Assembly (NCBI GenBank): GCA_965205505.1
Contig: CBDBHB010000009.1
Coordinates: 448,001 to 512,000 of the forward strand
Source: Acidobacteriota bacterium
GTDB lineage: Bacteria; Acidobacteriota; UBA890; WLXD01
DNA: 64,000 nucleotides
Direction: 5' to 3'
Of the stretch, positions 48,028 through 52,760 are shown piece by piece; the first letter of the stretch is position 1; each line of letters begins with the position of its first letter. Below the pieces are notes generated by a model, which saw nothing but the letters and a program-made list of their open reading frames with translations, made no database searches and had not been told where the DNA came from. A program made the translations under genes and the position numbers.

Positions 48028-48051
48028 TAGTGGCCTGTTACAGGCCACTAG
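48028..48051. repeat. Palindrome formed by two fused MITE ends
   Basis: tagtggcctgt-t-acaggccacta(g); the arms match the MITE TIR tip at 50710. Confidence 0.7.
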
Positions 48052-49262
48052 ACTAGCCTGGCCAGAACGCCTAGCAGCCTCGCCACGTCGGCCCGATTGT
48101 TGAACAGCGCCACCGCTGCGCGTAGTAGCCGGCCGTCTTCCTGGAACGTGACCGGGACGTGGTCCGCCCTGAGTGCTTTGAGCAATTTCTCAGGATCCAG
48201 CCCGTGGTAGAAGCTGACGATCGGCGAGGTATTGTCCGGCGGCGTAAATAGATCGAGGCCGAGCTCGGCGACTCCCGCGCGCAGCTCGCCAGCTAGCGCA
48301 ACGGTGTGTCGTTCGATGCGATCGAGCCCCACGTCCTCGAGCACGGTCAGCGCTGCGTCCATGGCGGCCATGGCGCCATACGACACGTTGGCGTATTCGA
48401 ACTTCTCGGCTGTCGTCTTGAGAAGAAAGTGATGATCCAGAAGGTTCTCGGCGACCTGACCGTGGCCGTAGCGGTCGGGTGTCATCCATTCGAGATGCTC
48501 CCGGCGAACGTACAGGGGCGCACAGCCGAAATCGGCGAACAGCCACTTGTAACCGTTGCCACAGGCGAAATCGGCGCCCTCGTCATGGAGATTGGTCGTG
48601 AAGGTACCGAAGGCGTGAATCGCGTCGGCGTAGAGGTAGGCGCCATTGGCGTGGGCAAGCTCACCGAGCGACGGCAGGTGGTGGCGAAATCCGTTGCGGT
48701 TCGAGACCCAGGCGACGCTGATCAATCGCGTGCGGCCGTCGACACGGGCCTCGAAGTCCTCGATGCGCGCCCGTCCGCCATGCGAAGGCACGATGCGCAA
48801 CTCGACTCCGGAGCGCTTCTGGAGCTCGCGATAGAGGACGAAGCTGGTGGTGAAATGAAGCTCATCGAGCACGACGTTGTCGCCCGCTTTCCAGTCAATG
48901 GCGCCGACCACGATGTTTTCGCCGTCGCTAGTGGCGTAGAGAAACGCGATCTCGTCCTCGTCGGCGCCGAAGAGCGCGGCGAACTTGGCACGGGCGCGCT
49001 CTTTTGCCGCGCGGCGGCTCGCCGGGTTCCGGTAGAGCATCTTCTCGTCCGCGTATGCCACCAGCGTGTTGCGAACGGTTCGCGACAGCGGGCCGAGCGA
49101 CGCGGTATTGAGATAGGCCAGCTCGTCGGTGACCGGGAACTCGGAACGCACCCCGAGCGGATCGTCCTCGGACGGCGACGCGAGCCCGCGTGTCGTCGGC
49201 AGCGCCGCGAGCCCGGTGATCGCGGTCGTTCTCAGGAAGTTGCGACGGCTCAGAGCATTCAC
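48048..49262 (-). CDS. Class V PLP-dependent aminotransferase/desulfurase-like, Tat signal
   Basis: SRRNFL, YLNTAS, DAIH and GYKWL motifs. Confidence 0.85.
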   Translation of the reverse strand: MNALSRRNFLRTTAITGLAALPTTRGLASPSEDDPLGVRSEFPVTDELAYLNTASLGPLSRTVRNTLVAYADEKMLYRNPASRRAAKERARAKFAALFGADEDEIAFLYATSDGENIVVGAIDWKAGDNVVLDELHFTTSFVLYRELQKRSGVELRIVPSHGGRARIEDFEARVDGRTRLISVAWVSNRNGFRHHLPSLGELAHANGAYLYADAIHAFGTFTTNLHDEGADFACGNGYKWLFADFGCAPLYVRREHLEWMTPDRYGHGQVAENLLDHHFLLKTTAEKFEYANVSYGAMAAMDAALTVLEDVGLDRIERHTVALAGELRAGVAELGLDLFTPPDNTSPIVSFYHGLDPEKLLKALRADHVPVTFQEDGRLLRAAVALFNNRADVARLLGVLARLV

Positions 49263-49406
49263 GAGGATCTCTCCCGACTGGGTACCTGGCTCGAGTTTCT
49301 ATCTACTAGATGAGATGAGAAGGCCAACCTCCTGAACGCAGTAGCCTGACGGCTCTGCAAACGTTTCTTCAAACGTAACGGGCTCGAAGCCCAAGGAGGT
49401 TGGCCG

Positions 49407-50449
49407 ATGAGGAGTGTAACGATTGGACTGGACGTAAGCGACCGGTACAGCCGTATGTGCGTGCTCGACAGTAAGGGCAGGGTGATGGAGGAAGGGCGGG
49501 TGAGGACGAGCCCGGAGGGGCTGGCGAGGCGGTTCGGGTGCGAGGAGCCCGCTCGAGTAGTGCTGGAGGTTGGAACGCACTCGCCGTGGATGAGTGAGCA
49601 GTTGAAGCAACTGGGTCATGAGGTGCTGGTGGCTAACCCGAGGCGGCTGAAGCTGATCTATGGCGAGCACGGACCGACCGGTTGGATGCCGAGCACCTGG
49701 CACGAGTGGGCAGAATGGACCCAAAGCTGCTTAAGACGGTGCAGCATCGAGGCAGACAAGCGCGAGCGGATCTAGCCGTGATTCGGAGCCGAGATGCTCT
49801 GGTAAAGAGCCGCACGCAGTTGGTGAGCCATGTGCGTGGTGCGGTCAAGTCGGCCGGTTGTCGTATTCCCAGGTGCTCGACGCCGGCGTTCGCGCGCACC
49901 GCGCCAGAGCACATACCGGAGCGGCTCAAGGGAGCGCTCGAGCCGGTGCTTGAAACGATCGCCATGCTGACGGGCAACATCCAGCAATACGAGCGTCAGA
50001 TCGTGCAGCTGTGCCAGGGGCGATACCCGGAGACACAGCAGCTCCAGCAAGTGGCCGGGGTCGGAGCTCTGACCGCACTGGCGTATGTGCTGACGCTCGA
50101 GGAGCCGGAACGGTTCAATACCTCCAGAGCCGTGGGCCCGTACCTGGGACTGAGACCGAAGAAACGGCAGTCGGGGGACAAGGACCCTGCGCTACGAATA
50201 ACCAAGGCGGGCGACAAAATGCTCCGACGCCTGTTGGTGGGCTCGGCGCATTACATCCTGGGCCCCTTCGGGCCCGATACTGAGCTCAGACGCTGGGGGC
50301 TCAAGCTGGCCGGACGCGGTGGTCCTCATGGCAACAAAAAGGCAGCAGTTGCTGTCGCCCGTAAGCTCGCCGTTGTGCTGCACCGACTGTGGCTGAGTGG
50401 AGACGAGTACGAACCGTTGCGCGCACCTGTAGAGGTTTCAGCAGCATGA
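49407..50449 (+). CDS. IS110 DEDD recombinase (frameshift near 49670)
   Basis: IGLDVS, VLEVG, (K)TDRLDA, GVG, YLGL.P..RQSG and VAVARKL motifs. Confidence 0.9.
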
Positions 50450-50695
50450 ACTAACCCGCAACCAGGAGGTCGGTAGGGCGACGCGACCCAACGGTTATCG
50501 ATCTGACCGCCCGGTCCGGGCGACTGCGAAGGTCACTACGAGCTTCGAGCTCGGCAGCTAGATTGCAGCGCCTCGAATCGGGACGGACCCCAGAATGCAC
50601 CGGACGACCTGAATCCTCGTCCACCAGAGTGCGAATAGGAGCATGGCGTGCAGATCGATTCTTCGCTGGGCACCACATTGCCCTTGACCGAACTA
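50450..50695 (+). ncRNA. Putative bridge/seekRNA of the IS1111-type element
   Basis: Stem-flanked internal loops carrying segments that match the insertion target and the circle junction. Boundaries approximate. Confidence 0.7.
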
Positions 50696-50709
50696 GGCCT
50701 TCTCATAGA

Positions 50710-50986
50710 AGTGGCCTGTAACAGAGGTTCGTTGCATATTGCTGGGACGAGATGGGGGCAAGCTCAAGGCGCGATGAGGATGGCGATGCGGTGCCCATCG
50801 TCGACGAATCGCAACGCTGAGATTGCCCCCATCTCGTCCCAGCCCTCCGGGTGGCCGCGGGACTGGCCACCTCCGGCGTCGGCTCTCCTCTGCGATACGC
50901 TCAGCATCGCCGTCGTCGGGCCTCCTTGGATTCGACTCAGTCGCGCGCGCCACAATATGCAACGAACCTCTGTTACAGGACACTAG
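50710..50986. mobile_element. MITE with about 32-bp TIRs, CTAG-bounded; left tip interrupted by the IS1111
   Basis: agtggcctgtaacagaggttcgttgcatattg (50710-50741) versus caatatgcaacgaacctctgttacaggacact (50953-50984), one mismatch; no transposase. Confidence 0.85.
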
Positions 50987-51020
50987 CGGCCGAGTCGATC
51001 AGGGGTAACGGTCGCGCGCT

Positions 51021-52760
51021 CTAACGAGCCGGCTGCTGTTTGATGATCCACTCGACCAGTTTCGCCACGGCCTTCGAAGTTGCGGCGTCCAGAGCATCGA
51101 GGTCGTTCATGTCGTCGACACGGATGCGCTCGTCCGTGTCGGCGTCGCGCTGCGTGCTCCGTACCCTGAGGCGGAGATCCATTTCTCGGCGGGGCTCGTC
51201 CGCGAGCTCACGCAGCTCGATCCAGGCGGTGAAGTCGACCAAGGCCGGGTACCGCGCCAGCGCGATCGTGGGTTGTCGCTCCAGGTGGCGCGCTATGCGA
51301 CGGTGCACACTTCGCAGCGCCAGCTGCGCCGCGAGGTCGGGGACCATCGGCTTGAGAAACTCGATCACCGGCCCCTCATTCAGGGTAACGAGTCCCGCGG
51401 GTGGGTCCGACACGCGGCGTAGCCGGTCGATGATCTCCTCGGCGGGCACCCCTGCGCGCCGCGCCCGGATGGCGTGATTCTAGGCGGCCGGGTAGTCCAA
51501 CAGCCGGTACGCGACTTGGGCGATGCGCGCGTGCAGCTCACCGGAGCCTGGGGTCAGATCAAGCGCCTGCTCGTAGGCCTGGCGGGCCCCTGGCCACACG
51601 CCGGCGTCCTCGAGCACCCGGCCGCGACCCAGGTGCGCGGAGCTCAGCTGCGGATCGATGGCGGCGGCCGCCCGGAACATCGACAGGGCGGCCGTGGGGT
51701 CATCCGCGAGCAGGCGCGACGCCTGCCGTAACGCAGACCGCGCGCCAGCATAATCCACCGAGGTGCGGAAGACGCCAGGCTGCACCAACGGATCGGCATC
51801 GGCAACCTTGACCACTACGCTATGCCCACCTTGCTGTACCGGCGTGGGACCGCGGTAGGCGAGCACGTAGTAGCCGCGCACCAGCGCCAGCACTTTGTCG
51901 TAGCCGTCGCGTATGTCACGTTGCATGATCAACTGCCCGCCGGAGACGCGCGCCAGCTCTCCGAGCTGTTGCTGTAGCTGCTCGATGTAGGAGCGCTCAC
52001 GCTGGTAGCTGGCGAAATCCCATGAAAAGCTGGGCGCCAAGCGGCGGCCGGCCGCCAAGCCGACGGCGACCGCGAAGATCGGTGTCTCGGCCTGATGTGT
52101 CGCCAGCAGAACGTCGGCGTATTGTGCGTTGCCGCCGGTGTCTTCGCCGTCGGAGAGCAGCACCATCGCGGCACGTCGGCCAAGGGCCTCGGTCGCCGAC
52201 AGGGGCTCGGTGCAGCTGGCGTGGCCGGCGGCCCCATCGAGGCGCTCTTCATCTTCGGGCCGCCGCCTCCGCAGACCGCGGTAGGCGGCCTGAATGGCAT
52301 CGTAGAGGCGTGTCTCCGAGCCGTAGGGAATGGCGTCGACGATACGTCTCAGCAATGCATCCCGAGGCGATCCCCATCGGCCGGGCCCTACCGCCGAATG
52401 GAACGGCATGAGCAGGACACAGTCGTCGGGCGCCAGCGCGTCGAGAAGCGAGTGAATCGCCTCACGAGGTCTCGGGTCCGGCCACTCCTGTTCGATGCTC
52501 GCGCTGAAGTCCAGTACCAGCGCCAGGTCCAAGGGTGCGTTACTGGGTGCGAGCACCAACTGAATTTCCTGTTCGATCCCTTCTTCGAAAAGCCTGAAGT
52601 CGTCGACCCCGAGACCAGTGACGGGCTCGCCGTCGTCATCGAGTACTGCCACCTTGATGCGCGTCAGGTAGACAGCGGTGCGGTAGCTGTGCTGGTCCTG
52701 CGCGTCGAGCCGACCGCAGACCATCGCCACCAATGCCAGCAGGGCGAGCGTACGAACCAT
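51021..52760 (-). pseudogene. VWA-domain (VWFA-related Acidobacterial type) + TPR protein with an in-frame TAG at 51480-51482
   Basis: VLDDDGEPVTGL...F.LFEEG, LDFSAS, T.LYDAI and LSDGED motifs. The downstream ORF is in the same frame. Confidence 0.75.

Follow-up and report, generated by a model that had tools for sequence, protein, structure and literature searches.

An IS1111-family insertion sequence at the tips of IS630-type MITEs in an Acidobacteriota genome, with a predicted guide RNA for its target

We analysed a window of 64,000 nucleotides from an Acidobacteriota bacterium (assembly GCA_965205505.1, contig CBDBHB010000009.1, positions 448,001 to 512,000 of the forward strand); positions given without a contig name are counted from the first letter of this window. 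At 49308-50709 the window carries a 1402-bp insertion sequence (IS) of the IS1111 family, which lies on the plus strand, as do its parts, and adjoins the exact end of a miniature inverted-repeat transposable element (MITE). Our results make it very probable that this IS inserts by RNA guidance, at one site and in one orientation, at CT^AGTGGCCT (the caret marks the point of insertion), and that this motif is made when an IS630-derived MITE lands. The genome was searched in its own assembly (G000; 5.98 Mb, 64.3% G+C, 9 contigs), and public contigs from four runs, X15, X12 and X1 among them, were aligned to window positions 48300-51900.

The left junction of the IS (49307/49308) reads ...tatctaCT|AGATGAGATGAGAAGGCC..., and the right junction (50709/50710) reads ...GGCCTTCTCATAGA|AGTGGCCTGTAACAGAGG..., so that AG forms the first bases of both the IS and its right flank. 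On the left the target is represented by CT (49306-49307), in which the C comes from the MITE's CTAG target and the T from the TA duplication of the MITE. On the right it is represented by AGTGGCCT (50710-50717), the A of the split TA followed by the first 7 bases of the MITE repeat. A first-pass annotation of the window had stated that AG is present at both junctions, had proposed that removal of 49308-50709 restores a CTAG-tipped repeat, and had suggested a search for an empty-site allele. This allele was found in run X15, in which a contig (record 18, 641 nt, depth 3.9, approximately that of the flank) extends from 48693 to 49307 and continues at 50710. The joint omits exactly 1402 bases, with the 2 bases AG fitting on either side, and fixes the boundaries within this ambiguity. 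From this joint it follows that the MITE was there before the IS, that the IS measures 1402 bp at this locus, and that no target duplication accompanied its insertion. Contigs leading from the flank into the IS were present in runs X12 and X1. The depth of the IS was about 12-32 times that of the flank in the four runs, which is consistent with its copy number in the assembly.

The IS is an unnamed member of the IS1111 family (IS110 superfamily, DEDD recombinase), as the first-pass annotation had recognized. PMC11187229 describes IS1111-family elements as coding for a transposase 330-350 aa in length that contains a GL-P----S(T)G motif, and as having sub-terminal inverted repeats of usually 11-13 bp that are perfect or near-perfect, asymmetric terminal extensions (7, or 6, bp at the left end and 3 bp at the right end), and a long stretch of non-coding DNA downstream of the transposase gene. 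According to the same source they use one specific target in one orientation without target duplication. All of these features were found here. An intact copy in the genome (L001) encodes a 348-aa transposase with PF01548 (64.6 bits) and PF02371 (62.3 bits), which scores 205.5 bits with the NCBIfam model NF033542, 'IS110 family RNA-guided transposase' (cut-off 140), and contains GLRPKKRQSG (YLGLRPKKRQSGDKD), which fits the motif. The left terminal extension comprises the 7 bases AGATGAG (49308-49314) and the right one the 3 bases AGA (50707-50709). The sub-terminal repeats ATGAGAAGGCC (49315-49325, 11 bp) and GGCCTTCTCAT (50696-50706) match at 11/11 positions. The non-coding region is 260 nt long downstream of the transposase gene (50450-50709) and 99 nt long upstream of it. 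The single target, the single orientation and the lack of a target duplication are seen in the census of copies described below and in the X15 joint.

A single-protein search of genome contigs found one relative only (L002), and four genomes of the same genus gave no match at E <= 1e-30. A tblastn search of plasmids gave matches below 60% identity and did not place the element; identity to plasmid-borne IS110-family transposases was at most 36% among the 25 listed of 4051 matches.

Copies of the IS were collected by BLAST in its own genome, and junctions were counted separately for each end. There are 27 full-length copies (98.6-100% identity) and about 6 partial ones. The first-pass annotation had suggested a check of all copies for a common position and orientation, and this check bore it out: among 31 right junctions AGTGGCCT was found in 30 and AGTGACCT in 1, and among 29 left junctions CT was found in 27, TT in 1 and TG in 1. 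Target positions are numbered so that the stretch paired by the guide, TAGTGGCCT, occupies -1 to +8. In the full copies, positions +1 to +8 are constant in 27/27 except for one A at +5, and of the last two bases of the left flank the first is C in 25/27 and the second is T in 26/27. The sequences around this core differ widely: the 29 left junctions have 28 different 30-nt flanks, and the 31 right junctions have 23 different 60-nt flanks. Insertions are therefore not at unrelated sequences, and the uninterrupted ctagtggcc tip postulated by the first-pass annotation exists, since CTAGTGGCCT is present in the genome 109 times free and 30 times occupied, compared to about 13 occurrences expected from base composition. 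Most of the free CTAGTGGCCT sites are MITE tips.

How far the IS depends on the MITE itself can be read from the right flanks. The tip pattern of the MITE, AGTG.CCTG...CAG, continues at 24 of the 31 right junctions, and an interior that is repeated three or more times in the genome follows at 16 of them. Of the remaining 7 right flanks, which are without the tip pattern, one is a MITE tip interrupted by an insertion of 1 base, and the others share the short motif alone. The short motif is therefore recognized, not the MITE as such. The earlier proposal that the IS homes on the ends of a MITE or IS family holds insofar as it uses one orientation and a site of about 10 bases that comes mainly from multicopy MITE ends; it needs correction in what is recognized.

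The MITE body in the window is 273 bp long (50711-50983), with 31-bp terminal inverted repeats at 50711-50741 and 50953-50983 that match at 30/31 positions. The only difference is at the fourth base, which is G in the left repeat and T in the right one. The right end reads ...CCTCTGTTACAGGACACTAG, and its last three bases (50984-50986, plus strand) are the TA duplication and the G of the CTAG target; this tip is CTAGTGTCCT on the minus strand, a non-target. The element is short, has many copies and lacks coding capacity, as is typical of a MITE, and its full-length copies elsewhere in the genome are 92-97% identical. An Rfam microRNA match inside the MITE was dismissed as chance (29.5 bits, gathering score 84).

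A strict search for long elements bounded by MITE tips returned nested or chance pairs only. A looser search for such elements found a 1183-bp IS in two copies, at G000:C9:2198454-2199636 (L024) and C9:263590-264779. The 381-aa protein of L024 matches the NCBIfam IS630 model NF033545 (272.9 bits) and PF13358 (80.9 bits), and its left tip, TAGTGTCCTGAGTCAG, is identical to the commonest tip of the GAGTCAG subfamily of MITEs. The tip of the window MITE agrees with it throughout bases 1-10 and at 19 of bases 1-24. Both ends of L024 carry the TGTCC variant, which is never occupied by the IS1111-type element. A loose pattern yielded 241 free tips, of which 163 have TA in front of them and 142 have CTA. 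IS630 elements follow a CTAG/TA insertion rule. The tip shared with an IS630-family IS, together with the TA or CTA in front of the tips, indicates that the MITEs are IS630-type and duplicate the TA within CTAG. The first-pass annotation had named a CTAG-targeting family; insertion at CTAG stands, while the duplication is of TA within CTAG and the tip is that of the IS630 family. An IS5/IS1182-type parent was considered and rejected: PF13751 had no match in the genome, and the sole PF01609 locus (L023) has unrelated repeats. In four distant relatives of the IS630 element (66% identity), a quick scan found no exact 13-mer inverted repeat.

In a genome of the same genus (G004), the left flank of the window is 94% identical up to a bare CTAG at the point where the left flank in the window ends. 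Synteny with the window is absent behind this CTAG, where the sequence maps to the end of contig C3. The bare CTAG is consistent, and only that, with a putative order in which CTAG came first, the MITE followed and the IS came last.

By the convention for IS1111 ends, the insertion point of the IS is between the T and the A of the duplication that flanks the MITE. The IS is thus at the outer edge of the repeat and leaves the repeat itself, GTGGCC..., whole. The wording of the first-pass annotation, that the element inserted into the terminal repeat, has to be changed, as it is the TA duplication that is split. That the IS disables the MITE, as also suggested there, is an idea that this anatomy does not imply.

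What had been called a programmed element in the first-pass annotation does home on its target, and two things were absent from that account, the broken transposase gene (see below) and a guide RNA that would explain the programming. Within the downstream non-coding region we found a predicted target module of about 80 nt (50507-50586), of the type called seekRNA or bridge RNA, which consists of a long stem, a 9x9 internal loop and a capping hairpin. Its minimum free energy is -42.2 kcal/mol (z -2.6), and the same structure recurs when the whole non-coding region is folded. The 5' side of the loop, AGGTCACTA in DNA and AGGUCACUA as RNA (50530-50538), is the 9-nt complement of TAGTGGCCT on the top strand, with one G.U pair at +5. 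It is followed by the cap hairpin CGAGCT-TCG-AGCTCG (50539-50553). The 3' side of the loop, GCAGCTAGA in DNA and GCAGCUAGA as RNA (50554-50562), carries CUAG and corresponds in sense to the left flank and core, ..CT|AG, with the first A of the IS added. The two loop sides show no difference among the 27 full copies.

The pairing implies a rule at +5, where a U in the guide would pair with G or A. The genome contains sites that differ at this base, and their occupancy follows the rule. CTAGTGGCCT, which forms the G.U pair, is occupied at 30 of 139 sites, and CTAGTGACCT, which forms an A-U pair, at 1 of 3. In contrast, CTAGTGTCCT (T) is occupied at 0 of 87 sites and CTAGTGCCCT (C) at 0 of 6. The difference in occupancy between G and T at +5 is significant (Fisher test, p = 2e-7). 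Occupancy also depends on the two bases to the left of the motif: AGTGGCCT with CT in front has 27 occupied and 109 free occurrences, as against 2 occupied and 138 free ones where CT is missing (p = 2e-7). The 3' loop side therefore also matters.

Further evidence for a guide comes from relatives with other targets. A genome of the same order (G011) carries a related IS with about 69% DNA identity, the same ends and another target, and five further relatives with 43-61% protein identity were found in metagenome contigs and a metagenome-assembled genome. The covariation set comprises seven elements with seven different targets (G000, G011, L025, L027, L028, L029 and L002); L026 was counted as the same IS as L025, and L030 (whose contig lacks the left end) and L031 (27% identity only) were excluded. 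The six relatives have the same 7/3 layout of the ends as the IS in the window. All seven elements keep the frame GACUGCG(A), loop, hairpin, loop ending in AGA, U(U/G/A)GCAG, and the stems are retained in their consensus fold, where 7 of 16 pairs show compensatory changes. The cap hairpin of the G011 relative shows compensatory changes. Both loops differ in the six relatives, each matching its own flanks. When all seven 5' loops were compared with all seven right flanks, the pairing of a loop with its own flank extended over 9, 10, 9, 10, 10, 7 and 9 nt, and in the 42 off-diagonal cells it covered 2-6 nt. For the 3' loops, the match to their own left flank together with AG is 5-8 nt long, and off the diagonal it is 2-5 nt long apart from a single value of 8.

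Taken together, these observations suggest the following course of events. An IS630-derived MITE would land in CTAG and duplicate TA, which would create the motif C + TA + the first seven bases of the repeat (GTGGCCT). An RNA of about 80 nt from the 3' non-coding region would recognize this target, with the loop side AGGUCACUA pairing with the top strand TAGTGGCCT and the loop side ..CUAGA pairing with the bottom strand of the left flank and the AG core. Recombination would then take place at the AG common to the start of the IS and the target, leaving no target duplication. We infer that the RNA is produced and bound by the transposase and that the IS passes through a circular intermediate with a promoter at its junction. 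Junction promoters that arise from the abutted ends of a circular intermediate are described for these families in PMC11187229. In the window, TTGACC (50684-50689), a -35-like hexamer 20 nt from the end of the IS, is a candidate for one half of such a promoter that would be completed at the circle junction, and all seven related elements keep TTGAC at a distance of 20-21 nt from the right end. A joint of the circle junction was not reported among the contigs of the four public runs, which cannot show its absence. We also looked by eye for a donor-binding loop in 50590-50680, where no structure could be defined. At 50635-50641, AUAGGAG agrees with the right end followed by AG, and the G011 relative has AUAGAAG; we make no claim of a donor loop.

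Several observations weigh against RNA guidance as described here, and some of them would suit a transposase that reads the MITE repeat by itself, in the manner of classical site-specific recombinases, with the complementarity of the RNA being coincidental. A pairing of at least 9 nt (Watson-Crick plus G.U) between a 260-nt region and a 10-nt target arose in 223 of 5000 dinucleotide shuffles (p about 0.045), so the match within a single element is weak and the case depends on its position in the loop and on covariation. None of the listed public runs is recorded as RNA. The module had no match in Rfam 15 when 48500-51500 was scanned, and no relevant family was found in that interval. The guide is fully Watson-Crick paired only with the rare TAGTGACCT and forms a G.U pair with the common target, and the GCAG upstream of CUAG in the 3' loop is only weakly mirrored in the logo of left flanks. 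Two of the relatives, L027 and L028, have right flanks that begin with bases other than AG, so that the core or the boundaries assigned to them are tentative. Against recognition by the protein alone, both loop sides track seven different targets while the stems and the ends of the IS stay conserved, and the +5 rule (G and A versus T and C) is the one expected from pairing with U. The 7 of 31 right flanks without the tip pattern (6 if the tip with a 1-base insertion is left out) share just the short motif, and PMC11187229 reports experiments in which the RNA was essential for members of the family. We therefore regard reading by the protein alone as highly improbable.

The association of the IS with MITE tips could also be inflated by co-amplification, if units of IS and MITE, or larger segments, were copied together and few insertions were independent. 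In favour of this, two pairs of copies have a common right flank of at least 700 nt and are duplications rather than independent events, two pairs share exactly the IS and a 277-bp MITE, the mosaic pattern of single-nucleotide polymorphisms (SNPs) among the IS copies points to recombination or gene conversion, and GAGTCAG tips are occupied far more often than those of another subfamily (see below). Such co-amplification is nevertheless very unlikely as the general explanation, given the diversity of left and right flanks in the census, the insertions in several MITE subfamilies and at right flanks without the tip pattern, and a polymorphic empty allele with exact boundaries. The order of events could also be reversed, with the MITE inserting beside IS copies that were already present and using the IS end as a preferred site. 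IS630-type elements favour CTAG/TA, and many MITE tips abut others at a shared CTAG. This order is contradicted by run X15, which has the locus with the MITE and without the IS, although its empty-site contig has just 26 letters on the MITE side because it ends in the repeated MITE. Moreover, the left TA of the MITE duplication is split by the IS and restored only upon its removal, the base in front of the repeat in occupied sites is the A from ..AGA|A and not TA, and 109 tips are free of the IS. The reverse order thus has next to no probability, and insertion of the IS, guided by RNA, into a motif left by the MITE accounts best for the data.

RNA guidance in this family was demonstrated experimentally in 2024 (PMC11187229; PMC11208160), and our understanding of how IS1111-type elements work is unchanged by the present finding. 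As in ISEc11, ISXne4 and other IS1111-family elements for which seekRNAs are described, the module is in the downstream non-coding region, from which an RNA of 70-100 nt is made in those elements (PMC11187229). The match to the top strand is located 5' of that to the bottom strand, with an overlap between them in the target, as described for ISEc11, ISPa11 and ISKpn4 (PMC11187229). The pair formed by the window IS and its G011 relative resembles a natural re-direction like that between ISEc11 and ISXne4, in which the stem is kept and the matching bases are changed (PMC11187229). The RNAs of ISEc11 and ISXne4 were demonstrated by co-purification and reprogramming (PMC11187229), whereas ours is a result of computation.

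Homing of IS1111-type elements on the ends of mobile elements is already known, and the present IS is a clear new example of one parasitic element exploiting another. IS4321 and IS5075 are likewise IS1111-family elements with sub-terminal repeats that have as their target another transposon family's terminal inverted repeats in one orientation (Partridge and Hall 2003, cited in PMC11187229 and PMC11208160). Their target, as given in these sources, is the 38-bp repeats of Tn21-family transposons on enterobacterial plasmids, whereas the hosts in our genome are short, non-coding chromosomal MITEs that are cut within the TA duplication. A parallel in the type of landing pad is the founding member of the family, IS1111 of Coxiella burnetii RSA 493, with 20 of 21 copies in the MITE QMITE2 and insertion polymorphisms between strains that date the events (PMC5896051). 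In that case the target is a GTAG palindrome, a repetitive extragenic palindromic (REP) sequence, inside the MITE and 10-20 bp from its 5' end (PMC5896051). Here it is the outermost tip together with the flanking TA/C of an IS630-type MITE, the host belongs to another phylum, and the transposase is only distantly related. Other members of the IS1111 family use REP or attC sites (PMC11187229). ISPa11, ISPpu9/ISPpu10 and IS621 in REPs share with our IS the use of an abundant intergenic repeat as a safe landing site (PMC11187229; PMC12288879; PMC11208160). REPs are not transposon ends, whereas the site described here exists only where a MITE landed in CTAG. The literature that we searched contained no report of an IS1111-type element at the tips of IS630-type MITEs.

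The genome offers a well-populated natural example of RNA-guided IS1111 targeting, with about 30 copies of the IS, 109 sites that are free and, in addition, near-cognate sites one base away from the target. It amounts to a natural specificity experiment in which G or A at +5 is accepted and T or C is not. With the six relatives, a small set of sequences is at hand in which covariation of the target module can be followed within this IS1111 subgroup. As the IS marks MITE tips, insertion polymorphisms like that in X15 may be usable as strain markers and as a clock for the activity of MITE and IS.

The transposase gene in the window (49407-50449) is broken and is read in two overlapping frames, 49407-49775 with the DEDD domain (PF01548 at 49407-49772) and 49682-50449 with PF02371 (at 49682-50446). 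The frameshift is due to a 4-base deletion, as ACAA is missing behind 49671. The same 4 bases are missing in 12 of the 27 full copies, the window copy included, and one of these 12 also has another single-base frameshift. The 348-aa frame is intact in 10 of the 27, and the remaining 5 have other single-base frameshifts. In all four public runs, the collapsed IS contig contains ACAA. SNPs are distributed as a mosaic across the copies, which suggests gene conversion among them; because of this pattern, the copies do not decide whether the broken ones spread by movement in trans. From its frames, the window copy can only be mobile if an intact copy supplies the transposase.

A possible reading of the G/T difference at base four of the MITE repeat is that two selfish elements have been engaged in an arms race over a single base. 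If so, TGTCC tips, which are unable to pair with the guide and are never occupied, would have escaped, and TGGCC tips would be the ones colonized. The non-pairing T is carried by 87 tips and by both ends of L024, the autonomous IS630-type copy examined. The RNA-guided IS would act as a hyperparasite and favour escape variants of the transposon that hosts it, and the U of the guide, which pairs with G or A, would represent the current state of counter-adaptation. Occupancy of TGGCC tips differs between the MITE subfamilies, being 6/7 for GAGTCAG, which looks the oldest, 5/10 for GTAGCAG and 13/82 for the homogeneous GTAACAG (p = 3e-4 for GAGTCAG versus GTAACAG). The age of the sites accounts for this difference equally well as escape from the guide, and we consider an arms race unlikely.

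The motif CTAGTGKCCTG is present twice in the window, compared to 0.04 occurrences expected. At 48029-48051, between two convergent genes, there is a 22-bp back-to-back pair of MITE repeat tips (..TAGTGGCCTGTTACAGGCCACTAG..), within which a perfect target, CTAGTGGCCTG (48041-48051, minus strand), is unoccupied at a distance of 1.3 kb from the IS. Elsewhere, the tandem CTAGTGGCCT-CTAGTGGCCT is located at G000:C8:5179-5198 and C9:2703763-2703782, in both cases at the far tip of a MITE that has the IS at its near tip, and the same sequence is found at both places.

A class-V aminotransferase gene (PF00266) with a twin-arginine-like N-terminus is located at 48048-49262 on the minus strand, and its start codon is 46 bp from the left end of the IS. 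MITE and IS together (1.68 kb) have therefore displaced whatever lay upstream of this gene.

Among the relatives, L025 and L026 represent the same IS on two metagenome contigs, with left flanks that are identical over at least 16 nt and right flanks that diverge after 9 nt; judging from these flanks, its target is probably the end of a repeat too. In G011, the closest relative of the IS (G011:C1:3908161-3911885, L010 and L004; 63-68% protein identity) has its transposase gene split by an insertion of about 2.7 kb. Finally, an element of about 1272 bp with a 339-aa frame is present at 12 places in G000, for example at C9:41798-43069. It has an rve-like core and is one that we take to be IS3-type. 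Its right end holds AGTGGCCT by chance, and it is unrelated to the IS1111-type element described here.

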